Assembly: GCA_040954595.2 (NCBI GenBank)
Contig: CM082587.2
Coordinates: 186,001-250,000, forward strand
Direction of reading: 5' to 3'
Source: Balanoglossus misakiensis
Taxonomy: Eukaryota; Animalia; Hemichordata
DNA length: 64,000 bases
Under the pieces are notes generated by a model, which did no database searches, was not told the DNA's origin, and saw only the letters and a program-made list of their open reading frames with translations. Every line of letters starts with the position of its first letter. Position 1 is the first letter of the stretch. Positions 3,101-36,882 of the stretch are shown piece by piece. The position numbers were made by a program, and so were the translations under genes.

Positions 3101-6100
3101 ATGTTCGTTGTTCTGTCTCAATCCATTGACTGTACATTTAAGATTCAGAGATGTCATTCTTATTAATTATTCTTTGTTAACCTTGATTCTTTCAGAGGTT
3201 TAAATAAACATTTTTTTGGGGAAGTCGCCGCCAAAGTTGTACAGTTTGTGTCAACGCTGATGTTGGCATCTATTCGTGCCAGGGCATACGTATTTTAACT
3301 GCTAATTATGGCCGAGAAACCTGGATATTAAAACTGCCCTTTGGTCAGTTTTTGCTTTTCCATATGAACGCTAATTTCTTTCTGTTTCCTTTCATTGTAG
3401 GGGCCACCTGGACCTCAAGGAGACATCGGTCCACCTGGTCCAAGGGGGCCTCCAGTAAGTGGCTGAGTCTTTATGTTAATTATGGAGTTAAATAAATGTT
3501 TATTTTCATAAATGTAACTATAGTAACCAAGCATAGTTAATTACTGTTACATCTATTGCGAAATATGCCTCATATGGGGAAGATATCATCGAAGTTTATT
3601 CAACAGTGTCATCTACAATGGAGACAGGGTTCGGCCCCATCTCTGGCCCAACCCTTACTTGTTTTATTCAAGCTTGCTGTATTGAATATTCAAAACATTC
3701 AATACATTATTCTATTTTAAATCAACCACGGATATCATGATTGTTAGGAGTGCATTGGTTCATCGTAACCAGTCACTGAACAAGTATTTTTTTTCTTTCC
3801 AAGATAACATGTAAATATACATTGAGATTGTGAAGAATCATGCCTCAGTCTATTGTTTTACTTTGTTCATAGGGTCCACCAGGAACGAATGGAATGGAAG
3901 GAGAGCAGGGCGCCAAGGGCAGTATGGGTAATAAGGGAGATCAAGGTCCGATGGGATTGGTCGGTCCAGTTGGCCCACCGGTGCGTTACCCTGTCCAAAT
4001 CTCGTTTACTAAGACAGCAAAATTACGTTCGCAGTCTGCGTGACAAAAATAGTGTAAATCCTATCGTCAGCTTTTACATATGTCTTCTAAGGATGAGAGA
4101 GTTCAAACCTTCATTTGCATACTGATCATATCTCTTGCGTCTGTATTATTTGAAGAATACTTTTTTGTTAATGAGATTGAAATCTTTTCTTTGTTTTAAG
4201 GGTCGACAAGGTCCTTCCGGTAATGACGGTCCTAGAGGACCACCTGGACCCGAGGTAACCTTTACGCAATTTTTATAACCGCATTGAATTTAACTTAATA
4301 ACTCGATCGATACATGGTTCAGTTCCAAGTACATCTACTGCATCATATTTTTGAGAGAAAAAAAACACAATTTGATAAATTAGAAGGTTATGATTAATGA
4401 GCGAAAATATGCCGTTGAACTGTTGAATCGTGTCGCACAAGCACCTCACTCTCAATGTGAAGAATTTGTGATTATACAAACTTTATGTCGTAAACGCGTT
4501 TCTAATTAATACCTGTGTTATGTACAGGGTATTCCCGGTGAACAGGGAGGACTTGGTCCAAGTGGATTGCCCGGCCCAATGGTAAGTCTTTGTTTCAGAT
4601 TTCAATCGTACTTTGTTTAGGGTATCTGCAGAAGTTATCGAAGCTTATTATTCACGTATGTTTGGGGGATATATTGTTGATTATGACATAATGTCAAAAT
4701 ATTGTCGATTTTCAGGGATTACCGGGACCGAAGGGCGACACCGGCGATCGAGGAGAGAAAGGCGAAAAGGTAGGTAGTATTCTCTGCAAGTGTGTAGTGC
4801 CTACATAATCCGTCACCAAAATGTCTTTTTAACGCAATTTCTTCGAAGACGAGTAAAGAGTTTTTACTATATTTAATGTGGAAGAATTTTCATCTCTAAA
4901 TATCAGGAAAAAGGGAAACGTCTGCATAGAAAAATAATAAAAAAACTTGTCAAAATGTTGAATATAATACCCATGCTCTCCTCACAGACCATACTCTATG
5001 TATGTATTATCGCCCTTGACGTTACAAACTGTCTCTGACACACGCGACTTATGTATCCGAGGTTAGAAGTCTTGATTTAATGTCGTTTTTATTACAGGGT
5101 GACAAAGGCGACCTTGGCTTAACGGGACCAGAGGGCCCACCTGGTGAGAAAGGGGAACCAGGTTTACCAGGTGTTGAAGGACAAATGGGACCGAAAGGCA
5201 GCCAGGTGAGTTACTTCCAATCAACTTCAAGCCATAAACAGCGTATTCAACTATCAAATATTGGCATTCGCGCAAAATTGTGGGTCTCTAACCACTGCCA
5301 TTTAACAGTTTAATTTATTTTATTTTATCGTCTCTTCCAGGGACTTTCCGGCCCACCAGGTCCTCTTGGACCGGACGGAATTCCAGGCATTCCAGTAAGT
5401 TTTCGAAATCTGTGTTTATTTCATTTCAGATTTATGAGAAAGCAGTAAACTCTACTTGGTAGAATCCCTGATTAAGGTCTAAGCAACTGAAAATCTTTGC
5501 TCCTCCCAGACTCTCGAGATTATCTTGAATTCTGGGAATTGGTTGAGCATTACAAAGTGTGATTGCATTGAGGCGTCTGTAGTCACAGACAAGTCGGAAC
5601 GACCCGTCCTTTTTGCCTACCAGCAAACATGGGCTAGACCATGCGCTGTCTGATTCTTCCAGTAACCCTTTATCTACAAAACTGTGTATTAACCCACGAC
5701 TAGAAAATCTCTGCAGCAGCAAATCACACAACTCATCATAGTCATTCACATCGCGACCACAGTGAGCAGTGAACTCCAACGCACGCCCTCGCAACTTTGT
5801 CAAAAGCATGTGGAATTTTTGCTCAGTATCCCATCCATTGACGCGCGCACACAGATGTCAAAATGCAGCTTGTAATTTACGAAATCTTTTTCACCATCAT
5901 AGCTATCAGCCTTGGCTGTATTTTGTCTCAAGTAAGACGCTGTCTATCAAATGAGCATTTTACCGGTGGGGGGGAGTTGTCTGTCTGCACGGTAACTACT
6001 GAGGGTGGATTTGTCCCTCTATTCACACCCAGACTGCTAGAATCCACTCCCGAATTCGCAGAGCCAAAAAAAGATGCGGGATTTGAATTTGCATTCGATG

Positions 6101-9100
6101 CAGCAAAAGAACGAGCGCTATGCGAATCTCTATCAGCTTGCCCTATGGTTGATAACACGGCTTTGAGCCATTGACGTCGGTGTGTCGCAACTCGCAGTGG
6201 CAGAGGGAGTGAACGCACGGTATGCCGACCGACCTGAGCGTTGCGCTCACACAAATACCAAGAAAAACCTCGGAATTACGATCCGTAGACAACTAAACCT
6301 CTCAGAGATTACAGAAAAGTGTTCCCACAAACGTGGAGAAAGGTTTGAACGAAAATATAAGAAAGATAGAGGTAAAGTACGAATTCAGATCACTACACAC
6401 GAGAGCACGATGCTCCCAGTTCAACCGCCATGTCTCGTCTGGTTTTGAATGACGAGTGGAATCACTATATATACAAGCAACAAGCCCACGTGATACAAGC
6501 TCCGCCCCCCCCCCCAATCGTGGAAGATTTAGTTTCTCCTGCTATGGGATGTCTCAGTCTGAGAATCAGGAAAAAGTTGCATTTCTTGAGATACGAGTCT
6601 TGTGTGCGGCGTTGACCTAGCAATTCCGTGACAGTATTACTACTGTCACTTTGCGCAGGCGCAGTTAGAATCCAATTATCGATCACAATTATTTCAATTC
6701 TGGACTTCAGATGAGTCCTGGACATTTATTTTAATGTATCGTTCACCTATTCATAACCTATAATTCCGTCTATTTCGTGTATTATTTTTGCAAACTATCA
6801 GCTTGCCCTATGGTTGATACACGGCTTTGAGCCATTGACGTCGGTGTGTCGCAACTCGCAGTGGCAGAGGGAGTGAACGCACAGCGTAGGTCTCGCCGTA
6901 GAGAAAATGAAGTTTACTCTGTCGATCCTGAATTGTGCACTTTATTTCTCACTTCACCATCTGGTGACATAAGTGGTGGCAAATCCATAAAATCATCAGG
7001 TTGATGTACATTGGACGCCTCAACAGACCGACCTGGAGTTTTATCAACTCCTATTTGTTCACCTTGTGGGAAACTGATTTCACTGTCGACGAATTTCTCC
7101 ATTGTACTACAGTGCACATGCGAGGCACACCAGACAAAAAAATCGATAACGCTATTCAACAATTTAGCATAAATGTATAAAAACAATAGAAGCAACACCC
7201 AAGAAAAGTCCACAGCTGCAAAACGCAGACTGAACGAACAAGCAGCACAAATCTTATCCCGCAATGCCACCAATGTAAACGGAAATTATGTCGGACTGAG
7301 GTCCCCACAATTGTCAAGCCTTAGTGAATGGCGAACCTTGGACCAAACAGCCAACTCAACGGTAGCGTAAACGTAGCACGATCGAGCCTTGACGGCGTAG
7401 ACCGGTCCGTTACAAGTCCTGGTTCGATTTACCTTGCTCACGGCAGAACGTGCGCTAACAGATGTGCTGGAAAATGCAGTATAAACTGCCAACCGACCGA
7501 CCTGAGCGTTGCGCTCACACAAATACCAAGAAAAACCTCGGAATTACGATCCGTAGACAACTAAACCTCTCAGAGATTACAGAAAAGTGTTCCCACAAAC
7601 GTGGAGAAAGGTTTGAACGAAAATATAAGAAAGATAGAGGTAAAGTACGAATTCAGATCACTACACACGAGAGCACGATGCTCCCAGTTCAACCGCCATG
7701 TCTCGTCTGGTTTTGAATGACGAGTGGAATCACTATATATACAAGCAACAAGCCCACGTGATACAAGCTCCGCCCCCCCCAATCGTGGAAGATTTAGTTT
7801 CTCCTGCTATGGGATGTCTCAGTCTGAGAATCAGGAAAAAGTTGCATTTCTTGAGATACGAGTCTTGTGTGCGGCGTTGACCTAGCAATTCCGTGACAGT
7901 ATTACTACTGTCACTTTGCGCAGGCGCAGTTAGAATCCAATTATCGATCACAATTATTTCAATTCTGGACTTCAGATGAGTCCTGGACATTTATTTTAAT
8001 GTATCGTTCACCTATTCATAACCTATAATTCCGTCTATTTCGTGTATTATTTTTGCAAACTATCAGCTTGCCCTATGGTTGATACACGGCTTTGAGCCAT
8101 TGACGTCGGTGTGTCGCAACTCGCAGTGGCAGAGGGAGTGAACGCACAGCGTAGGTCTCGCCGTAGAGAAAATGAAGTTTACTCTGTCGATCCTGAATTG
8201 TGCACTTTATTTCTCACTTCACCATCTGGTGACATAAGTGGTGGCAAATCCATAAAATCATCAGGTTGATGTACATTGGACGCCTCAACAGACCGACCTG
8301 GAGTTTTATCAACTCCTATTTGTTCACCTTGTGGGAAACTGATTTCACTGTCGACGAATTTCTCCATTGTACTACAGTGCACATGCGAGGCACACCAGAC
8401 AAAAAAATCGATAACGCTATTCAACAATTTAGCATAAATGTATAAAAACAATAGAAGCAACACCCAAGAAAAGTCCACAGCTGCAAAACGCAGACTGAAC
8501 GAACAAGCAGCACAAATCTTATCCCGCAATGCCACCAATGTAAACGGAAATTATGTCGGACTGAGGTCCCCACAATTGTCAAGCCTTAGTGAATGGCGAA
8601 CCTTGGACCAAACAGCCAACTCAACGGTAGCGTAAACGTAGCACGATCGAGCCTTGACGGCGTAGACCGGTCCGTTACAAGTCCTGGTTCGATTTACCTT
8701 GCTCACGGCAGAACGTGCGCTAACAGATGTGCTGGAAAATGCAGTATAAACTGCCAACCGACCGACCTGAGCGTTGCGCTCACACAAATACCAAGAAAAA
8801 CCTCGGAATTACGATCCGTAGACAACTAAACCTCTCAGAGATTACAGAAAAGTGTTCCCACAAACGTGGAGAAAGGTTTGAACGAAAATATAAGAAAGAT
8901 AGAGGTAAAGTACGAATTCAGATCACTACACACGAGAGCACGATGCTCCCAGTTCAACCGCCATGTCTCGTCTGGTTTTGAATGACGAGTGGAATCACTA
9001 TATATACAAGCAACAAGCCCACGTGATACAAGCTCCGCCCCCCCCAATCGTGGAAGATTTAGTTTCTCCTGCTATGGGATGTCTCAGTCTGAGAATCAGG

Positions 9101-12100
9101 AAAAAGTTGCATTTCTTGAGATACGAGTCTTGTGTGCGGCGTTGACCTAGCAATTCCGTGACAGTATTACTACTGTCACTTTGCGCAGGCGCAGTTAGAA
9201 TCCAATTATCGATCACAATTATTTCAATTCTGGACTTCAGATGAGTCCTGGACGTTTATTTTAATGTATCGTTCACCTATTCATAACCTATAATTCCGTC
9301 TATTTCGTGTATTATTTTTGCAAACTATCAGCTTGCCCTATGGTTGATACACGGCTTTGAGCCATTGATGTCGGTGTGTCGCAACTCGCAGTGGCAGAGG
9401 GAGTGAACGCACAGCGTAGGTCTCGCCGTAGAGAAAATGAAGTTTACTCTGTCGATCCTGAATTGTGCACTTTATTTCTCACTTCACCATCTGGTGACAT
9501 AAGTGGTGGCAAATCCATAAAATCATCAGGTTGATGTACATTGGACGCCTCAACAGACCGACCTGGAGTTTTATCAACTCCTGTTTGTTCACCTTGTGGG
9601 AAACTGATTTCACTGTCGACGAATTTCTCCATTGTACTACAGTGCACATGCGAGGCACACCAGACAAAAAAATCGATAACGCTATTCAACAATTTAGCAT
9701 AAATGTATAAAAACAATAGAAGCAACACCCAAGAAAAGTCCACAGCTGCAAAACGCAGACTGAACGAACAAGCAGCACAAATCTTATCCCGCAATGCCAC
9801 CAATGTAAACGGAAATTAAGTCGGACTGAGGTCCACACAATTGTCAAGCCTTAGTGAATGGCGAACCTTGGACCAAACAGTCAACTCAACGGTAGCGTAA
9901 ACGTAGCACGATCGAGCCTTGACGGCGTAGACCGGTCCGTTACAAGTCCTGGTTCGATTTACCTTGCTCACGGCAGAACGTGCGCTAACAGATGTGCTGG
10001 AAAATGCAGTATAAACTGCCAACCGACCGACCTGAGCGTTGCGCTCACACAAATACCAAGAAAAACCTCGGAATTACGATCCGTAGACAACTAAACCTCT
10101 CAGAGATTACAGAAAAGTGTTCCCACAAACGTGGAGAAAGGTTTGAACGAAAATATAAGAAAGATAGAGGTAAAGTACGAATTCAGATCACTACACACGA
10201 GAGCACGATGCTCCCAGTTCAACCGCCATGTCTCGTCTGGTTTTGAATGACGAGTGGAATCACTATATATACAAGCAACAAGCCCACGTGATACAAGCTC
10301 CGCCCCCCCAATCGTGGAAGATTTAGTTTCTCCTGCTATGGGATGTCTCAGTCTGAGAATCAGGAAAAAGTTGCATTTCTTGAGATACGAGTCTTGTGTG
10401 CGGCGTTGACCTAGCAATTCCGTGACAGTATTACTACTGTCACTTTGCGCAGGCGCAGTTAGAATCCAATTATCGATCACAATTATTTCAATTCTGGACT
10501 TCAGATGAGTCCTGGACGTTTATTTTAATGTATCGTTCACCTATTCATAACCTATAATTCCGTCTATTTCGTGTATTATTTTTGCAAACTATCAGCTTGC
10601 CCTATGGTTGATACACGGCTTTGAGCCATTGATGTCGGTGTGTCGCAACTCGCAGTGGCAGAGGGAGTGAACGCACAGCGTAGGTCTCGCCGTAGAGAAA
10701 ATGAAGTTTACTCTATCGATCCTGAATTGTGCACTTTATTTCTCACTTCACCATCTGGTGACATAAGTGGTGGCAAATCCATAAAATCATCAGGTTGATG
10801 TACATTGGACGCCTCAACAGACCGACCTGGAGTTTTATCAACTCCTGTTTGTTCACCTTGTGGGAAACTGATTTCACTGTCGACGAATTTCTCCATTGTA
10901 CTACAGTGCACATGCGAGGCACACCAGACAAAAAAATCGATAACGCTATTCAACAATTTAGCATAAATGTATAAAAACAATAGAAGCAACACCCAAGAAA
11001 AGTCCACAGCTGCAAAACGCAGACTGAACGAACAAGCAGCACAAATCTTATCCCGCAATGCCACCAATGTAAACGGAAATTAAGTCGGACTGAGGTCCAC
11101 ACAATTGTCAAGCCTTAGTGAATGGCGAACCTTGGACCAAACAGTCAACTCAACGGTAGCGTAAACGTAGCACGATCGAGCCTTGACGGCGTAGACCGGT
11201 CCGTTACAAGTCCTGGTTCGATTTACCTTGCTCACGGCAGAACGTGCGCTAACAGATGTGCTGGAAAGACCGACCGACCTGAGCGTTGCGCTCACATAAA
11301 TACCAAGAAAAACCTCGGAATTACGATCCGTAGACAACTAAACCTCTCAGAGATTACAGAAAAGTGTTCCCACAAACGTGGAGAAAGGTTTGAACGAAAA
11401 TATAAGAAAGATAGAGGTAAAGTACGAATTCAGATCACTACACACGAGAGCACGATGCTCCCAGTTCAACCGCCATGTCTCGTCTGGTTTTGAATGACGA
11501 GTGGAATCACTATATATACAAGCAACAAGCCCACGTGATACAAGCTCCGCCCCCCCCAATCGTGGAAGATTTAGTTTCTCCTGCTATGGGATGTCTCAGT
11601 CTGAGAATCAGGAAAAAGTTGCATTTCTTGAGATACGAGTCTTGTGTGCGGCGTTGACCTAGCAATTCCGTGACAGTATTACTACTGTCACTTTGCGCAG
11701 GCGCAGTTAGAATCCAAATATCGATCACAATTATTTCAATTCTGGACTTCAGATGAGTCCTGGACGTTTATTTTAATGTATCGTTCACCTATTCATAACC
11801 TATAATTCCGTCTATTTCGTGTATTATTTTTGCAAACTATCAGCTTGCCCTATGGTTGATACACGGCTTTGAGCCATTGACGTCGGTGTGTCGCAACTCG
11901 CAGTGGCAGAGGGAGTGAACGCACAGCGTAGGTCTCGCCGTAGAGAAAATGAAGTTTACTCTGTCGATCCTGAATTGTGCACTTTATTTCTCACTTCACC
12001 ATCTGGTGACATAAGTGGTGGCAAATCCATAAAATCATCAGGTTGATGTACATTGGACGCCTCAACAGACCGACCTGGAGTTTTATCAACTCCTGTTTGT

Positions 12101-15100
12101 TCACCTTGTGGGAAACTGATTTCACTGCCGACGAATTTCTCCATTGTACTACAGTGCACATGCGAGGCACACCAGACAAAAAAATCGATAACGCTATTCA
12201 ACAATTTAGCATAAATGTATAAAAACAATAGAAGCAACACCCAAGAAAAGTCCACAGCTGCAAAACGCAGACTGAACGAACAAGCAGCACAAATCTTATC
12301 CCGCAATGCCACCAATGTAAACGGAAATTAAGTCGGACTGAGGTCCACACAATTGTCAAGCCTTAGTGAATGGCGAACCTTGGACCAAACAGCCAACTCA
12401 ACGGTAGCGTAAACGTAGCACGATCGAGCCTTGACGGCGTAGACCGGTCCGTTACAAGTCCTGGTTCGATTTACCTTGCTCACGGCAGAACGTGCGCTAA
12501 CAGATGTGCTGGAAAATGCAGTATAAACTGCCAACCGACCGACCTGAGCGTTGCGCTCACACAAATACCAAGAAAAACCTCGGAATTACGATCCGTAGAC
12601 AACTAAACCTCTCAGAGATTACAGAAAAGTGTTCCCACAAACGTGGAGAAAGGTTTGAACGAAAATATAAGAAAGATAGAGGTAAAGTACGAATTCAGAT
12701 CACTACACACGAGAGCACGATGCTCCCAGTTCAACCGCCATGTCTCGTCTGGTTTTGAATGACGAGTGGAATCACTATATATACAAGCAACAAGCCCACG
12801 TGATACAAGCTCCGCCCCCCCCCCCCCCCCCCCCAATCGTGGAAGATTTAGTTTCTCCTGCTATGGGATGTCTCAGTCTGAGAATCAGGAAAAAGTTGCA
12901 TTTCTTGAGATACGAGTCTTGTGTGCGGCGTTGACCTAGCAATTCCGTGACAGTATTACTACTGTCACTTTGCGCAGGCGCAGTTAGAATCCAATTATCG
13001 ATCACAATTATTTCAATTCTGGACTTCAGATGAGTCCTGGACGTTTATTTTAATGTATCGTTCACCTATTCATAACCTATAATTCCGTCTATTTCGTGTA
13101 TTATTTTTGCAAACGGGAAAATAATCTATTCTGACATGATTGATATTTTCTGCCATTTTACCATAGGGTATGGAAGGAAGACCAGGCGAAAAGGGCGACA
13201 GAGGAGATGATGGTTCTAAAGGAGATGCTGGCCCATCTGTATGTACTATCTTATTAGGCACACACAGCCAACATACCTGACAGACAGACAGACAGACACC
13301 TAGCCTTCATGGCGACAGGAACACACAATACATATATTTTTGAATCTGTATGGTGTCTATTTTAAATGTTTTAGTCCAAAAGTCTAAAAACCTCAGAAGT
13401 AAGCAAGAAATTGGCCTCAGGTTTTGGATGGAGAATAAAATGATTAGCCGGTCGTGACTAGTTTTTTTTCTATTTTTTTTCTTGTTCTTTTTCTTCTACT
13501 CTAGGGACCACCTGGACCACCGGTAAGTATCAAAATTAATATTATGTTTCATACATTCGATATCCTGAGTAAATTGTGTATTTAAATGTTTGCAAGAAGG
13601 CTATTCAATAGATGAATGTGATTTTGAGAAGTTAGAATAAAAGTTGGACGGCGATTGCATACATCGCATTGCAGCTTCAAATAGAGAAATGCATGGTGAA
13701 GAATAATAACATTGTCACTTGCAGAAAGAATAGGCCGATATTTCCATTGCCGAGAGACATTAAATCTCAGTAATTACTAACGAATATTTTAGAAAAATGT
13801 TCGTGTAACGTTGTTTTCTTTTGTTTTATTTTAGGGACCTCCGGCTACCATAGAGGTAAGCTATGTTAAACTGCCATCCATGAAACACTCCCACCAAAAT
13901 AACTCACACTACAGATCAATATGCAGAAGAGTGCAAATTAAGAGAGGACATCCACGTGGCATAACTGTGACAGTCGCTTTGTAAACGAAAAGTCCGAACT
14001 CAGTTTTGGCGGTATCATCGCTCTGGTTGTGACCTGTGAGTGCGCCCTCACAGTCAGTACAAAATTAGATTTTCGAACAAAGTCTAAAGTATATGACATA
14101 CATGTACCAAGGTTGTGGAATTTCTGTAATTTCAAATCAGTAATCATTGAATTATCACATCTTCAAATCAGAACTATCAACAGCTGGTGGACATGGGATT
14201 AGTGGGACTGACCAGTGATATGCTAAGAGACGAGGCTGAGAGACGGAGACGGAACGCCGGAGAAGACAACGGCCTGCCGCCCGATTACGCTGACGGTCTG
14301 GCAGAAATCTTTGGTTCATTGGAAGCCCTGAAGATCGAAATTGAGCAGATGAAGAAGCCAGTTGGAACAAGGTTTAACCCAGCTAGAACATGTAAAGATC
14401 TTTACATGTGCCATGAGAATTTTCCAGATGGTAAGGGAATCATCAGTAATCTCTTTTATTCTTCATCGAATATATTGTCAAAGGAATGAAGATTTCCTGA
14501 TGTAATTGTTAACAACAGTTTCTCGATAATCGGTGTAGTGAGTTACATAAATCAGCCCCACCCTCTTTTTACTGGTAGGTATGTATTGGATAGATCCAAA
14601 CCAAGGTTGTATCAAAGATGCCATTGAAGTGTACTGCAATTTTACTGCTGGAGGTGAAACTTGCGTCATGCCAGATGAAGACACAAAATCGGTATGAGAT
14701 ATAAATCCCTTATTTATTTATTTATTTATTTTTGATCACTTTATTTTTAGCTTTAGTTAATGACTATTCCCCGTGAAGGCAATGATGTCAATCAAGTTCA
14801 AAGTCATCATGAATCACTAAATAAGTTAAGAAAATTCCTTTGAAATTTGCGCCTTTTCTATGACAAAATGGTGATCTTTGCCGAATATACGATGTCGAAA
14901 TCATGTTTTTATGCGCCTTGATTTGCTGCCTATACTCCTGACTTATCGTATTCTCTACACTATTGCGGGAGTTTTGCTCATTTGTACTGGCGTCAGTCAC
15001 TGCAGTCATCGGATAACATTGAAACTAATACTTATAACCCATCTCCAAAACGTCAAAATCAGGGATGAGTTTTAAGGGAAAAACTTGTCAGCGCGATTAG

Positions 15101-28879: not shown

Positions 28880-29160
28880 ACAATAATATATACAACCATG
28901 GCACTACTGTGATAAAACACACAGTGGCCCATACAACACACCTATCATGCAACATGTACATGATAATTCATTCTCAAATAAAGTTATATTTACCTGGACA
29001 ATCTCGCTTCCAAATCACGGATTTGGATCAGGAAGAACTCTTTGCTCAGTTCTGATAGGCTTTCACTCGATGGTGCCGAGGAAGAACGTGCCGATTTCTT
29101 TCCACTTTTCTTCCCACTTTTCTTTCCTTTCTTCTTACCTCCCTTTTTCTTCGGCGGCAT
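25724..29160 (-). CDS. CFAP157: Cilia- and flagella-associated protein 157 (coiled coil)
   Basis: About 8 exons (~28994-29160, 28285-28556, 27929-28082, 27543-27810, 26983-27265, 26507-26718, 26019-26214, 25724-25861). [11 protein letters not shown]...[50 protein letters not shown] and [30 protein letters not shown] match CFAP157 as I recall it. Confidence 0.9.
28812..28878. repeat. (GAT)n microsatellite in CFAP157 intron 1
   Basis: Directly visible. Similar (CAT)n tracts lie at ~23850-23879 and ~30623-30740. Confidence 0.95.
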
Positions 29161-29704
29161 ATTAGTTGGCTATTTTCTGCTTTATAGTCCCGACAAATAA
29201 ATGCAATTATTATGACCTTCAATGGCGTTACGTCGCGACGGCGTAACCACTTCTATTCTTCCGCGTAAATCGCGACTGGCACGCCGATCCTACGGCGGCG
29301 AACCCTTAGGCGGTTCGATGGATCCCTAACAGACTGGTAATGATATAAGAAAAATTCAGAGAAACGAGTTTTGTCCAGGATATATTACATTTTCCTGTAT
29401 AAGATAGTCCTCGATCACTGTTCAAGTAGACGACTCCATAGCTGTACTGTTGTCAAGGTGTGACGTCACTCAAATAGAAACCGTGGGTTCGTTTGACCGT
29501 CTTTCCTTCCTCCAGTGTCACTGGAGAAAGCAAAACACCAACATACCCGGAAGTATAAAGCCGGTTGTCGATGTCAACAGTGCTAGTGACATGGGTAATG
29601 TTTACGTTTATGCACGATCATGTATATCTGTAGCTAGTAGTAGCGTGTGTGTTTGGGACGAAATCACAGATTGCCTAGTTATATTCTAGAGAGACAGACT
29701 ACCG
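29161..29704. promoter_or_regulatory. Bidirectional promoter region between CFAP157 and PIGC
   Basis: Divergent ATGs ~545 bp apart, CpG-rich, with CRE TGACGTCA at 29461-29468 and ETS CCGGAAGT at ~29548-29555. Confidence 0.6.
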
Positions 29705-30662
29705 ATGTTGCCCCGTTTGACACTCGACATGGTTGTGGAAGGGAGGCAAAAGTGGAAGAAAGTGCTTTATGATGATCAAGGCAAACCTGATAACTATGTC
29801 GACGAGTCGTTTCTAGACGAAATGAAGAAAAATGGTAAATAAATTGATATTTTGTGTCTATCATCAACCTAAGAAATATACTGATATGTGTTGATGGCAT
29901 TTAAAAACAATTTCCCATTAATATTTATGATATTGATGACAATATTATATATATTCAAAAACTTATTTTCAATCTGTCTTTTCCAATTCAAGTCAATATC
30001 AGAACTTATGAGTTATGGAATGTGATCAGTGAGTCAGGTCTAGTATCTCAGCAGCTCAGTAGGTAAGTTAGTCTACATTATTAGACTTGATTGGGGGGGG
30101 GGGTAATTTGTGCCATATTTTATCACGGGGGGGGGGGGGGTGTTTTGACTGAGGATGAAGTTTTTCCCTAGTTTGAAATACCAATTTACACATCATTTTT
30201 GCCTATCCATATTTTAAAATATGATAACTATTTTTATCATCTTGAGTTGTTGTTTTTTTTTCTTTGTAGCATCTGTCTTTTTGTGGTTGCTTTTATTTAC
30301 ATGGACAAGGGTGACCTTTCACCCCAAGTTCTGTTCACTATCAGCTGCTGTGCAACAGTACTAGGTTATATCATTTATGATGTCATTGATGAGGGACTTG
30401 GACGACATCAGTATGGTAGAACCAGTAAGTAGTCAAATAATTCTAATCTTAACATTCTATGAATCCAACATATCTACGGAACTCACATAAGATGCAATGT
30501 AATGTGGAGAGATTTCATAAAAAGTGTCCATTTGATGACATCAAATGATGAGCGTCAGCTGATATAGGAATTTTAAGTCCTTAATTCCAGCCCCAACCCC
30601 AAGAAACTTAATTGGTTTCTATTCATCATCATCATCACCACCACCATTGTCATCATCACCAC

Positions 30663-30740
<78 letters not shown>

Positions 30741-33700
30741 GTTCTCCAATATGATTATTGACTATGCACATTGATTTTCTCAGGATTAGATGATTTGAAG
30801 TCAGTGTGTTTATTCTTAACGGCAGCAGTTGGACTATCACCAATCTTAAAAACATTGACAGATTCAATCAGTACAGATACAATCTATGCCATGACTGTAA
30901 GTACCATATTGTCAAACTCAGCTGTGGTTCTCATGGGTTGGCTGAACTTTTTTTACTTTTGTTTATAAATTGTCACACTTTCATTGACGGTCCAGTAATT
31001 ATAAAGGTCAACTTACTTTTTTGGATTTGTTTTCAGTATTTTTATTGTGTTTATCAACCGTTGTATGTTAATTGTTTATATATATATTGCTTTTTTCAGG
31101 TTTGCATGTTTCTTGGCAACCTGTTATTTTATGATTACAGAACAACAGGGGTGATGTAAGTATTTTATGCTTGTGTGTTTGTCTGGACTGTGAGAATGTG
31201 GGCTTTCTCTCATGCTCCCAATCTATTTTGTAAATAGCGCCCCCTAGCCATCCCCATTGTTTACCTAACAGTGCAGATATGCACAGAGCAACATTTTCCA
31301 TGAGTGAATAATCAACAACCCTTCTGCCCACTGATAACCTTTGGTGCTTTGATGGCAGTCTTAACCCCATAAAACAGCTAAACAGTTCATACATTATAAT
31401 GATTAACCTGAAGGTAGAGCTGTTGTCAAGAGCAACCAGTTTTCATCTTGTTATGTCTCTGATATTTCCTCAAGATCCACAGGCATGACAATGCTCTGGT
31501 TCATGTTAATGTTTAAATAACATTACTGTACATTAGAATAACTTCTTTACATACATGTACATGAAGTAGTTGTACTGTTTTTTCAATACATTTTGTATCT
31601 TTGTGCAAATTGTGTGATATTATGTGTCTTTTTATATTAAGAAAAAACAGACCTGGTTGATGTTTGTTATGAATCAATAAGGAATCAGAATAAGCTTTGT
31701 AAATCATCACAGTAAAAATATGCTTTTATGGAATTTATCTATACTAAACTCCTTTGTCTCTGAAGTGTAAGTGTCACAGCCAAACTGAGGATCATGCAAC
31801 ATAGTGAATCACTCACTCGCCTGAAACTGCAACTAAATGAAGCACAAGTGAATAAGAGTCCTTTTCATGCAAGATCTGAAATTTCAATTCGTACATCACC
31901 CCCAAATTTTCTATTTCCCCAATGTGTGCAGTTGTAACCATCTCACTGAAATCAGTAATGGTTTGACAAGCCCTCTAATTTTGGAAGGGCCAAACAATCA
32001 CCAATCAATCAATCAATCAATCAAAGTTAGATTTGATAATGTTCCGGACCAAATCAGTGCCAGGAAAATCTATAGCAATCATTCCCCATCTATGTTTCTC
32101 CGGCTGTTTTGTCAAAAAGTCATAAGTCTTGGGATTAATACATTCTGCCACTGCATCCGGATGAGCCAAGACACTTGATCCACTGGTATACGTCAAATAG
32201 AAAGTTTCCCGAGGGCCATCCCTGGCTTTCAAGAGATGTGTCTCCACATTTGCCCACTTATCATTAATATCGCTGTCACTCGTGCTGGGCACGTCCCACT
32301 GATCAGCGATATCCAGTGCATGGTACCATATTCCCATTGGTGGCCCTCCAAAATCCTGCAGGATGACTATTTTTCCCCGTACCTCTTCAAGTTTTGGTAT
32401 TTTATTTATAACCCAGAAATACTTTTCATCATATTCTGCCAGGATTTCTTTGAAAGTGTCGTTGAAAGAGCGCGTACAGCCCTCTTCGGTGTGTTCTTCT
32501 CGGACACGCATAATAATGGCATCTCTGAAATACTTATCCAAAAATCGGATGCATTCTTTTAGAACATCATGAAAGTTAGCATTCTGATATACGATACCAT
32601 GATGTATAGGCAATCCGTCTTGGTAGTGACGACAGCGAATGTCTAGGAATTTGACGCCAGCCTCCAGCTGTTCATAGAGCGACCAACTTTGACATTGGGT
32701 TAGAGAGCCACCATAACCTTCAAAGGTCCAAGTATTATGCGTCCCAGGTATGGACAACTCCGTGATGTATGCATTATCACGGATATTGGTCATCCAGTCT
32801 GGCCATTTGGACTCAGGACTTTCATCTTTGCTGTAATATGGTGATTTTGAAGAGCTGTTACCCATGCTGTATATGCCAAAGCCTAGTCTCAGTCGGGTGG
32901 AACAAAGTAAAACCCCGCTCAGACACCTACAAATTTACAACCTCAATATATCACACCTTTTGAATTATTAACACCAAATGGAATAGGTAATGTGTAACCA
33001 GTTAAAACCCACTGTATTTCTTCTCTGCCTGTGTTTTCTCTGCGTGCCATGTTATCTTGTATTCAGATTAACTGTGATAGTAAAGTCAAGGCAATATTAA
33101 CAGGACAAATACCTAACTAGGCCAGGAACAAGTGACTCACATACAAATGAATCGTCTGAACTCATAAGAGCAACTGATATTGGTTTAAAGCTGGTTTATT
33201 TGATCAAGGCCAATTTTTGTCCAGTCATGTGATATTTCCAAGGTTAAGTTGTTGTGATTAAGGGATAAAACCTTTACTATTAAACCTCCTTGTGACTGAG
33301 TTACCGTAAATGTATATTATATGCTTGGGCAACAAGTTGAATGGCATAGCAAGCATTTTTTGATAACTTGAATTCCCTAAGGGTGAAAAATGGGGTTTCC
33401 GCCTGGATATTTCCCACCCAAAAACAGGGTTAGGGATTGGGTAATAATCCAGATAGTAAAAGTCTGAGGGTTACTGTACTAGATCCTAAATGGATGTTGT
33501 AACACTTTTGACAATATATGTCTTCAATAACAGTATACATTCCAACCTGAGTCAATGGCCACCTCTGTATAGTGGTTACTTATCTGTAGCGGCCATGTTG
33601 TTACATTCCATGTGTAATTGACATGTGCATTAAAGGTATACAGTCACCTCCAATGTACATACACCCTTATATGGCTGAAATGGAGTATTTGAGCGTTCTA

Positions 33701-34903
33701 AAGAACATACGGTGGCGCTCTTTTTTTCGCGTGTGCCACCCACTGAAAATCTGTGATTGGCTAGATCTCATTTTGCTATGGTAACTATAGCTAATTTTCC
33801 ATGGGTGACCGTATACCTTTAATTGATCCGTCCATGAAGGCGACCTGTCTATAAAGGCCAATTCAGAAAGTCCTTTGACTGGCCGCTATGGACCGACTTG
33901 ATTGTACTTTAATACAAAATATAAGTTGGCTATGAACATCACCAATACGTCTTGTTTTTTTTTAACAGAACGACGAATGCGCTGTCTCTGAATGCGGCAA
34001 TATTTGCCTCTGTGTGCCTGGCTTCTAGACTACCCACAACATGGCATACACTGACTACAGTGGCATTAGCAATGCAAGTCTTTGCACTCTGGCCAGTACT
34101 CCGGAGAAAACTAAAGGTAAATGAAAATGGAATGGATGGGAATGTTGTCAGAGGTCAAGGAATTGTAAGCAGGGACTATACTGATCCTGAAAGTCATGGA
34201 ATTTGAAAATTGTTCATGGAAAATCCTTGAAAGTCCCAGAGTGGGTTCAGTATTCATTCCATGCTCAGTAATAAATAGATTTTATTTCAAGATTTAGATT
34301 TTTCTATATCATCTGCCATTAATGCATAACTCTCATTATTTTATCCATTTCAGAATCACATCTCCCGCTCACAGGTCGTCATGACCTGGATCCTTGCAAC
34401 TGTTGCTATGGCAGCATTGTTTACAGTCAGTAAAGTTGGTGCAGTGTTTTTTCTACTCCTTCACATGGCAATAACATTCCTCTTTCCATTCTGGTTGATC
34501 AAACTACAGCCCTACAAAAAGTGAGTCATACAACAGTTTTACCTGTTTCATACATTTCAGATTGTCTTCATTTCAATTTTCTTTCTTTCAAACATTCTTC
34601 ATTGACTTTTGGTTAACAGTTGTTATATATTTCCTCCAGTGTCACTACTTTAAAGTACAAGACCAAATGTCCATACATGTATGTACAGAAAATGTACAGC
34701 AAGGAAAGTTTCCAAAATAAAAATTGGATAACAATGCAACAACCAGTTTTTCCAACCAGAGATTCTTTTTACTAATTTTATTATGAGCAGTCTAAAATTG
34801 GCCTCTTTCCTTTGTACTTGATTACTCATCAATTTGAATTTCTCTATTTATCTCCAGTAACATCTATGGACCATGGGATGAAGCAGTCATCAAAGACAGG
34901 TGA
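29705..34903 (+). CDS. PIGC: Phosphatidylinositol N-acetylglucosaminyltransferase subunit C (GPI2/PIG-C)
   Basis: Exons 29705-29834, 29993-30062, 30270-30424, 30784-30896, 31100-31155, 33969-34116, 34354-34520, 34858-34903 join in frame. Motifs [66 protein letters not shown]. Start may be 29729. Confidence 0.95.
32017..32865 (-). CDS. Bacterial-type PI-specific phospholipase C (PI-PLC X domain, B. cereus/Listeria PlcA-like family), single coding exon, nested in PIGC intron 5
   Basis: Intact 282-aa ORF with DWM...SIPGTHNT (H43), [22 protein letters not shown] (D75, R77), IHHG (H89), [14 protein letters not shown] and WGMIAIDFP (D266). N-terminus MGNSSSK, no signal peptide. Confidence 0.93.
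   Translation of the reverse strand: MGNSSSKSPYYSKDESPESKWPDWMTNIRDNAYITELSIPGTHNTWTFEGYGGSLTQCQSWSLYEQLEAGVKFLDIRCRHYQDGLPIHHGIVYQNANFHDVLKECIRFLDKYFRDAIIMRVREEHTEEGCTRSFNDTFKEILAEYDEKYFWVINKIPKLEEVRGKIVILQDFGGPPMGIWYHALDIADQWDVPSTSDSDINDKWANVETHLLKARDGPRETFYLTYTSGSSVLAHPDAVAECINPKTYDFLTKQPEKHRWGMIAIDFPGTDLVRNIIKSNFD
33535..33906. mobile_element. Degenerate TA-flanked MITE (Tc1/mariner-like ends) carrying a nested insertion
   Basis: Ends TACATTCCAACCTG...GGCCAC and GGCCGCTATGGACCGACTTGATTGTA are imperfect inverted repeats. Family assignment is from recall. Confidence 0.4.
33630..33822. mobile_element. TTAA-flanked MITE (Kolobok-like)
   Basis: TTAA-AGGTATACAGTCACC...GGTGACCGTATACCT-TTAA: a 15-bp TIR with 1 mismatch, and TTAA duplicated at 33630-33633 and 33819-33822. 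Confidence 0.8.
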
Positions 34904-36882
34904 CCAACCCTCAAACCAACATGCAGTTTCACTCTCTCTGTCTTTATCAAATCAATTACATCTTGTGCTGCTGTTGCATCTGTCAGTTTGGAAAATTGCA
35001 AATGAAGACCAGAGCCAGAAACGGATTACTGGAGAAACAGCACAGAATATTTAACAATGCTCTGTCCAACACTGCAGCTACTGAGCTTGCAAAAAAGAAT
35101 AATTTGAGGCTGGCAGCATAATTTATGGCTTAATATTAAATGAAATTCTACGTTTGTCTTTGTACACAGTGGAGTTTTTGAGATGTAATGTTAATGTGAT
35201 GATAGAAAAAAATTCAACGTGCCAAAATTGATTGTGGCGAGAATACATAGGGCACCCTCTACGTTGACATTTACATGGCTGTGCTATACAAATGAAACTG
35301 CAATCTTTTGTGCATCCCCACGTGACCGTTGCTGATATGCAATCACCAAGAGACTGAACTATTCTGGGATGTAATACATAAGCACAAAAATTAATCTCTG
35401 TCAATCTCTGTCAATTCAGCTTGAACGGGTTTTAAATGAAAGTGGCAGCTTTGATGGGTTATTCTCAGATTTTCGTCTCTTAGCATTAGCTTTCCCTTTG
35501 TGATCAGTCGACGCATTATAAAACTATTTGACCCGAAAGCGACCCACTTTTCCTCAATGTCAACTTAGAGTACTTCGCGGATTCCATCGAAGGTGCTGAT
35601 TTGACCACGATGTTGCCCTCAATGCCCTTGTTTCGAGTAAAGTGCTCGCCATGTCAGCGTCGCTCCGGGGAAAGGACGAGGCTGACTGCGATTTCATATT
35701 AAAACTCAGCGGTCTGTACGTCCCTATACTGTAAATATTATTGGAGTAGAGAACAATAATTGCCACCATCATCATTTTTTATTCACATTTTCTATAAACA
35801 ATATTTTGGTGAACGTACGACAGTTCAATCACTGTGTCATTGTACTTTTGCATGGAGCATGCCACTCTAGATTTAACGACGCTAACATATCCGAGGATTA
35901 CTGATGTGCTGACTTCGAAAGTCGGTAGCATGTGTAATTTGAACTTTAAAAAGGAACCCACCCGCAACTGAATCTGATTAGTATTTCCCACAGAAGATTA
36001 TTACATAATGGTATTAATGTGTTAAAGACAGTACGTTAATTCGGATCCTCCTTGGTTTAAGACAACTTTAAAATACCGCACAGGCAGAGCTCCCCAAGCC
36101 TGCCTTTCCCCCCATCCAGTTATTCGAGAGTACTTCACACTTGGCATTTGCCTTGACACAAACACCGTGTCGAACAATAAGAAAGACCGACAGGGTTTGA
36201 GAGACCTACATCACTCTGTAAAATGTGTAACGAGGTCGAGATTCTAGGCCACGATTTGTCTGAATTATGTTCCATTATCACCCGGCATTTGACTATTCCA
36301 CTCTTATTGCAGGAGTGCATCGTTTAGGATCAGCATACTGTGTTACACACTTTGAAACGTTAAAAATATCAGGATTATTTGTTTGTGGTGCATCGTTTTC
36401 GGATTCAAGGTACCAATCTACTGGCTAATGGTAACACGCACTCTCACACGATGTGGTTTACTGGGCAAATCGACTCCAATCACTTCTGTATGAGTGAAGC
36501 ATTTGGTATTGGGGTTGCTAGAAGATTGTTTAGGGAGACGATTCCGAAGGAACACCTTTGAAAAAAATCTACTTAGAAAATTATTCTGTGTTTTTCTATC
36601 AAACATAATTTATTATCATGTCGGACAAGTAACTGACACGACAAACGAAGAATATTGTGAAAGCTCCCTTAGAACCATGCATGATAGGGTAAGCCAAAGT
36701 AGTTATAAACTTATATTCCTCGCACTACATGTAGTAGTTTTTGTTTGATGGGTCAGTCTTTCTAAGACCGGGATCTAAATGACCAATGAAATATCATAGC
36801 AATTTCACTTTCGTGGCATCCAAATTCTATATTTTTAGAGAAGTCGCGTGTACTCTTGCTTCAAGAAAATAAAAACGCGAGG

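Follow-up and report, generated by a model that had tools for sequence, protein, structure and literature searches.

Intron 5 of the PIGC gene of the acorn worm Balanoglossus misakiensis contains, on the opposite strand, an intact gene for a bacterial-type phosphatidylinositol-specific phospholipase C (PI-PLC). The locus lies in a window of 64,000 nt (assembly GCA_040954595.2, contig CM082587.2, positions 186,001 to 250,000), and all coordinates given here refer to that window. The nested gene is an intact and conserved copy of an animal gene family. It probably encodes a myristoylated, cytosolic enzyme that acts mainly on unphosphorylated phosphatidylinositol (PI), and its presence in PIGC probably goes back to a duplicate that was inserted there incidentally within a restricted lineage. 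A dedicated role in the synthesis of glycosylphosphatidylinositol (GPI) is unlikely.

The nested gene and its host

PIGC is encoded on the plus strand by eight coding exons, which are separated by GT-AG introns and yield, when spliced, an open coding sequence (CDS) of 294 codons. All five of the exons that were scanned matched the Pfam family GPI2 (PF06432), and the identity of the protein to PIGC of other hemichordates is 89.5% for Ptychodera flava, 77.6% for Glandiceps talaboti, and 72.9% for Saccoglossus kowalevskii, values that suggest a ptychoderid acorn worm. Six of the introns have lengths of about 160-360 bp each, whereas intron 5 comprises 2,813 bp and is about eightfold longer than the longest of the others. 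The features of the locus are:

29705..29834, plus strand, PIGC coding exon 1 (first in-frame ATG at 29705; alignments of homologues begin at the ATG at 29729)
29993..30062, plus strand, PIGC coding exon 2 (tblastn with P. flava PIGC)
30270..30424, plus strand, PIGC coding exon 3 (tblastn with P. flava PIGC)
30784..30896, plus strand, PIGC coding exon 4 (tblastn with P. flava PIGC)
31041..31046, minus strand, AATAAA within PIGC intron 4, the first canonical one 3' of the PI-PLC stop codon
31100..31155, plus strand, PIGC coding exon 5 (tblastn with P. flava PIGC)
31156..33968, plus strand, PIGC intron 5, which holds the nested gene (GT..AG, phase 2; exon joins match tblastn of P. flava PIGC)
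32017..32865, minus strand, single-exon CDS of the PI-PLC, 282 aa (MGNSSSK start; H43, N44, D75, R77, H89, R122, D171, D188, W190, D266)
33629..33823, no strand assigned, inverted repeat pair of 20 bp, 95% complementary, upstream of the PI-PLC ATG
33969..34116, plus strand, PIGC coding exon 6 (94% identity to P. flava PIGC)
34354..34520, plus strand, PIGC coding exon 7 (tblastn with P. flava PIGC)
34858..34903, plus strand, PIGC coding exon 8 including the stop codon (tblastn with P. flava PIGC)

The open reading frame (ORF) of the PI-PLC runs from ATG to stop (32865..32017, minus strand) and its CDS is devoid of introns; its length of 282 aa and the borders of intron 5 are exactly those of the original prediction, which had been made from the sequence. 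It is the longest among the stop-free frames of the 64-kb window. When intron 5 was resampled 500 times with a first-order Markov model, no ATG ORF attained that length, the maximum being 190 aa. The GC content of the ORF (0.43, and 0.43 at third codon positions) matches that of PIGC (0.42 and 0.42). A second copy of the PI-PLC was not found within the window. Neither a convincing target-site duplication nor a convincing polyA tail was found flanking the ORF, and therefore retroposition is neither shown nor excluded. The inverted repeat pair, of which no second copy was found in the window, is possibly a remnant of a small mobile element. An Rfam scan of 29000-36000 gave no match. On the plus strand, intron 5 carries canonical polyA hexamers at 33279 and 33629; if these are used, PIGC transcripts may end early.

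Fold, catalytic residues and predicted substrate

The sole Pfam match to the 282-aa protein is PI-PLC-X (PF00388, E 3.7e-13). PH, EF, Y and C2 domains are absent, and the protein thus consists of a single PI-PLC-X TIM-barrel domain. Its best relative of solved structure is the PI-PLC of Listeria (1aod, E 1.8e-29), followed by the PI-PLCs of S. aureus and Bacillus. The AlphaFold model, with a predicted local distance difference test score (pLDDT) of 93.1, superimposes on 1aod with Z 34.2 and a root mean square deviation (rmsd) of 1.9 Å across 251 residues. For the Bacillus and Staphylococcus chains the values are Z 32-33 and rmsd 1.8-2.0 Å, and for animal/mammalian PLC-delta/beta/gamma Z is below 15.

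The active site was mapped by alignment with the Listeria and S. aureus enzymes. H43, R77, H89, and D266 align with the catalytic residues of Listeria, and D75 and D188 are likewise in place. Pfam, alignment and model therefore agree with the proposal that this is a bacterial-type PI-PLC with the catalytic residues H43, D75, R77, H89, and D266. The B. cereus counterparts of the four catalytic positions are H32, R69, H82, and D274, a numbering that draws in part on PDB titles and PMC7054996. The four positions are widely retained in the 89 named animal homologues (H43 in 84/89, R77 in 86/89, H89 in 77/89, and D266 in 86/89). From the fold and the enzymology of the B. cereus protein, the reaction would start with the activation of the inositol 2-OH by H43, aided by D266, while R77 would hold the phosphate without a need for calcium, and H89 would protonate the leaving group. 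The splitting of PI would then yield diacylglycerol and inositol 1,2-cyclic phosphate.

Two positions and the length of one segment are relevant to the choice of substrate. H43 is followed by Asn (N44), in contrast to Asp in Listeria and S. aureus; Asn is also the commonest residue in the 89 homologues (53, versus 18 with Asp). The corresponding residue of B. cereus is D33, an Asp of the catalytic triad. D171 is acidic as is its equivalent in Listeria (Glu), while S. aureus has Arg; this position presumably corresponds to R163 of B. cereus.

The substrate site resembles that of Listeria. The RGK motif and the inositol-binding Asp are separated by 25 residues, as in 65/89 homologues (range 23-31). 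By hand count, the same segment has 35 residues in Listeria and 48 in S. aureus, so that it is shorter by 10 and 23 residues, respectively, in the nested PI-PLC. Apart from a 2-residue bridge, the AlphaFold model has no additional strand in residues 171-185, i.e., no counterpart of strand Vb. According to PMC5773145, which cites Wei 2005, the small strand Vb is missing from the Listeria PI-PLC, and its activity toward proteins with a GPI anchor is very low for this reason. The short, Listeria-like segment thus points to an enzyme that would prefer PI, a preference compatible with the cleavage of the small intermediates N-acetylglucosaminyl-PI (GlcNAc-PI) and glucosaminyl-PI (GlcN-PI).

N-terminus and predicted localization

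N-myristoylation requires a Gly at position 2, after the initiator Met, and a small residue at position 6, and the MGNSSSK start of the nested PI-PLC has both. The N-termini of the 89 named animal homologues, which are related and thus not independent, were sorted by a crude hydrophobicity rule instead of a signal peptide predictor. By this rule, 45 have a signal-peptide-like stretch and 18 start with Met-Gly and are devoid of such a stretch; another 15 have other starts, and 11 are truncated or do not begin with Met. A Met-Gly start is therefore present in 18 of the 33 complete homologues that have no signal-peptide-like stretch. As originally proposed, the nested PI-PLC is likely to be a cytosolic, N-myristoylated enzyme, and myristoylation of Gly2 would tether the TIM barrel to the cytosolic leaflets of membranes. 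Some members from starfish and Saccoglossus begin with Met-Gly followed by cysteines (MGACCC, MGTCIGC, MGNSCC), which suggests that these may be both myristoylated and palmitoylated.

A widespread animal protein family

The nested enzyme is a new addition to a family that is already annotated in databases, as "1-phosphatidylinositol phosphodiesterase-like" proteins (the family of zebrafish si:dkey-266f7.9; e.g., XP_077984545.1 of Glandiceps and XP_014348659.1 of Latimeria). Like the nested PI-PLC, to which they are 43-50% identical, these proteins consist of a single domain and have the same motifs and the short link between strands V and VI, and 18/89 have the Met-Gly start; unlike them, the enzyme described here is nested in PIGC. 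Two protein searches were evaluated, of which the best 120 of 239 and the best 120 of 763 matches were listed. Among these matches, named homologues stem from hagfish, many ray-finned fish, coelacanth, lungfish, amphibians, lizards, birds, and platypus, and, outside the vertebrates, from starfish, octopods, limpets, and three hemichordates; therian mammals are not represented among the rows listed. A further named homologue, retrieved separately, is from a sponge. The closest homologues listed have an identity of about 50%, and a HMMER scan of 50% cluster representatives had none above 49% among the 150 rows listed. The nested PI-PLC has retained 48 of the 50 columns that are conserved to at least 90% in the 89 named animal homologues, and both deviations are conservative.

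A careful tree of 30 rows separated 22 animal rows, including the nested PI-PLC, from eight bacterial-side rows with a support of 100/97. A tree of 62 rows left the deep branches open. A hemichordate clade that appeared in a quick tree, with a support of 90 in the Shimodaira-Hasegawa-like approximate likelihood ratio test (SH-aLRT), found no support in the careful trees and is not relied on. The helix-B motif T[FY]x[GR][YHSK]GG occurs in 15 of the 324 retrieved proteins, namely in the nested PI-PLC, 13 proteins of P. flava and G. talaboti, and one JGI protein. As it is shared almost solely with these two species, it points to descent from a hemichordate pool of paralogues.

Two further observations concern the history of the family. 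Among bacterial proteins, the PI-PLCs of Myxococcaceae come nearest to the animal family (41-45%), with which they have an N-terminal Y-Y..P.WM pattern in common; any transfer between the two groups may have run in either direction. In addition, a lungfish protein, a freshwater sponge protein and ENA proteins form a cluster with a support of 100/99, to which the remaining vertebrate members do not belong. The cluster may represent a second subfamily of ancient origin, or it may be due to transfer or contamination.

A literature search with little coverage of subscription journals retrieved no paper on the function of the animal family or on a nesting of PI-PLC and PIGC. Simakov 2015 (PMC4729200) does not mention a phospholipase in its main text and two supplements, and further supplements may exist.

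The origin of the nesting

The occurrence of the nesting in other hemichordates was compared via the contigs on which their annotated proteins are recorded. In P. flava, PIGC lies on a contig of 40,999,305 bp, and the nine retrieved PI-PLC clusters lie on contigs of 50,616,078 bp (eight) and 13,249,498 bp (one). PIGC of G. talaboti is located on a contig of 25,083,287 bp, and its six PI-PLC homologues on contigs of 27,529,565 bp (five) and 33,943,121 bp (one). In S. kowalevskii the respective contigs have 745,798 bp for PIGC and 387,080 bp for two homologues. Thus, none of the 17 retrieved homologues, all of which are paralogues rather than orthologues, shares a contig with PIGC. Their close accession numbers suggest that they form local clusters. 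This comparison leans against a conserved nesting, but does not settle the question. PIGC was also sought in the first 82 loci around homologues and gave no match, which is a weak test because these loci are largely microbial; the homologue loci on metagenome (79), viral (3), and prokaryote (80) contigs revealed no animal synteny.

About 1% of human and about 10% of fly genes are nested, and the human ones are antisense in two thirds of the cases and mostly unrelated in function to their hosts (PMC4394429).

Several points weigh against the reading that the gene is an incidentally inserted duplicate encoding a PI-cleaving enzyme. A pairing of this kind would be rare by chance: for a family of ten genes and some 27 GPI genes as possible hosts, a rough estimate is 1 in 1000 per genome, although a survey of many windows will yield some suggestive pairs. 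The nested PI-PLC is only 43-45% identical to its P. flava paralogues, versus 89.5% for PIGC, and no orthologue was retrieved. At such an identity none of the P. flava proteins is the orthologue, and the contig comparison therefore concerns paralogues; the orthologue may have been lost, not retrieved, or left unannotated, possibly within PIGC of the relatives. The first protein search (best 120 of 239 matches) missed homologues at 46-48% identity. The 30-row tree, in which the nested PI-PLC is without a supported sister, and the 62-row tree give it no firm place among the animal paralogues. As to function, Asn in place of Asp at position 44 may mean that the activity is lower or changed. The location of strand Vb in the shortened segment between RGK and Asp is assumed, and Vb concerns mature anchors and says little about the cleavage of GlcNAc-PI or GlcN-PI.

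The missing orthologue could be explained by a nesting that is old, conserved and functionally neutral. Intron 5 of PIGC in related acorn worms would then hold an unannotated orthologue, and the two genes would merely coexist. The separation of the nested PI-PLC from all retrieved paralogues of P. flava long predates that of the species, as indicated by the identities above and an end branch of 0.43-0.49, so that an orthologue is expected to have been present at one time. Annotation can overlook nested genes that have a single exon. However, RefSeq has annotated many single-domain paralogues in hemichordate genomes, and a protein of 70-85% identity would have many 5-residue words in common with the nested PI-PLC. 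We regard an old neutral nesting as unlikely.

Relation to GPI synthesis

The original prediction went further and proposed that guest and host form a build/cleave module, in which an ER-tethered enzyme would cleave PI, GlcNAc-PI, or GlcN-PI, and in which the antisense position would couple or oppose its expression to that of PIGC. The chemistry would be feasible. The first two steps of GPI synthesis, which yield GlcNAc-PI and GlcN-PI, take place on the cytosolic face of the endoplasmic reticulum (ER), before the inositol is acylated (PMC7125958). In Leishmania, the cytosolic GPI-PLC of Trypanosoma brucei reduced the protein-GPI intermediates by a factor of about 10 (PMC2119965), and when the PI-PLC of B. 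cereus is recruited to the ER, it hydrolyzes PI there (PMC7054996). The Met-Gly start is a trait of the family. Variant polyA signals for the PI-PLC are present within intron 5 (e.g., at 31915, 31739, 31730, 31636), and the first canonical AATAAA lies beyond PIGC exon 5; if it is used, the 3' untranslated region could therefore run antisense across exon 5. Mutual transcriptional interference may, however, occur in any antisense gene pair.

The coupling to PIGC is not supported. The contig of PIGC harbors none of the 17 hemichordate homologues, and no PIGC match was found in the 82 largely microbial loci. The family is widespread and clustered elsewhere, many Met-Gly paralogues are located away from PIGC, and the segment associated with Vb is short as in Listeria. 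The tie between the two genes is their position and nothing beyond. It is unlikely that a cytosolic PI-PLC nested in PIGC, and recruited from a family that occurs from sponges to monotremes in secreted and myristoylated forms, prunes PI, GlcNAc-PI, or GlcN-PI on the ER in transcriptional coupling with its host and thereby creates a one-locus make-and-break switch for GPI.

Secretion, silence or bacterial origin as possible alternatives

Instead of a cytosolic protein, the locus might encode a secreted digestive enzyme, via an unseen upstream exon for a signal peptide, or it might be a silent recent copy. The claim that a signal peptide is absent is true of the ORF as read, but not provable without a transcript. 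A signal-peptide-like stretch is present in 45 of the 89 named animal homologues, and the 23 codons that precede the ATG are free of in-frame stops and contain AG acceptors. Moreover, in three RNA-seq tables teleost si:dkey-266f7.9 is among the down-regulated genes together with cel, cpa4, ela2, or pla2g1b (PMC7092794, PMC8187396, and PMC9368350), a hint that secreted members of the family are digestive. Against secretion, the context of the ATG comprises A at -3 and G at +4, homologues with a Met-Gly start align at this ATG, and among the 15 of 22 in-frame joins to upstream exons that were listed, none inside intron 5 had a hydrophobicity of at least 2.0, the cut-off (best value 1.93). An upstream signal-peptide exon is therefore possible but unsupported, and the nested PI-PLC has retained 48/50 conserved columns. 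Taken together, this alternative appears very unlikely.

It is highly improbable that the intron recently acquired the gene directly from a bacterium (Myxococcaceae) by horizontal transfer, or that the ORF is a bacterial contaminant. In favor of such an origin, the CDS is intronless, loci of Pyxidicoccus, Myxococcus, and Corallococcus, the closest bacterial ones, encode proteins 41-43% identical to the nested PI-PLC, and a grouping with the Myxococcus clade was not rejected by the approximately unbiased (AU) test (p 0.11). Against it, animal homologues are nearer (up to 50% identity), animal and bacterial rows are split at 100/97, the helix-B motif is of the hemichordate type, the GC values match those of PIGC, and the ORF sits between eukaryotic exons.

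Comparison with known systems

The best match in both sequence and structure is PlcA of Listeria monocytogenes (1aod, 2plc), which has the His/Arg/His/Asp set and the short segment and is devoid of the Vb hairpin; it differs in being a secreted virulence factor, in the Asp after the first His, and in having no myristoylation motif. The PI-PLCs of B. cereus/thuringiensis and S. aureus (1ptd, 3v18) have the same fold and catalytic residues, but they are secreted, cleave GPI anchors, and have a longer segment between strands V and VI (48 residues in S. aureus versus 25). The GPI-PLC of T. brucei prefers GPI and is palmitoylated, not myristoylated, and it is not known to be nested in a PIG gene. 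It was absent among the matches listed in all homologue searches. It is a precedent for a cytosol-facing, single-domain PLC that can deplete GPI intermediates (PMC2119965). With respect to gene arrangement, OMG, EVI2A, and EVI2B in NF1 are likewise small genes on the opposite strand of a long intron. Unlike these, the PI-PLC has a predicted substrate that is also the substrate of the complex of its host.

The surrounding window

Based on Pfam matches, the gene order between 400 and 60300 is fibrillar collagen (plus), NmrA-like (plus), a coiled-coil gene (minus), PIGC (plus), peptidyl-tRNA hydrolase (minus), a short-chain dehydrogenase, an ankyrin protein, and an SLC6-type transporter (minus). 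The coiled-coil gene is CFAP157-like, the dehydrogenase HSD17B8-like, and the ankyrin protein NFKBIL1-like. The human counterparts are presumably located in the major histocompatibility complex (MHC) and in the paralogous regions on 1q and 9q34, and the window may therefore be part of an ancestral proto-MHC linkage. The starts of PIGC and the coiled-coil gene face each other head to head, with about 550 bp between them (29160-29730), which suggests a shared bidirectional promoter. A tandem array at 6130-13114, with a unit of 1,265 bp and about 5.5 copies of 98-100% identity, is located inside the fibrillar collagen gene, between the exons for the collagen helix and the COLFI domain, and is adjoined by a reverse transcriptase fragment (5435-5857). 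It is either a recent array or an assembly artefact.

Significance

The nesting alone is probably a curiosity, and the uncharacterized family is the more interesting and more useful result. If the coupling to PIGC were true, a gene of the GPI pathway would harbor within it a gene whose product acts as a negative regulator of the earliest steps. Bacterial-type PI-PLCs are present in many animals and come in two targeting forms. The secreted teleost form resembles a digestive enzyme, and the cleavage of unphosphorylated PI by a native enzyme tethered to membranes would give animal cells a calcium-independent route to diacylglycerol.

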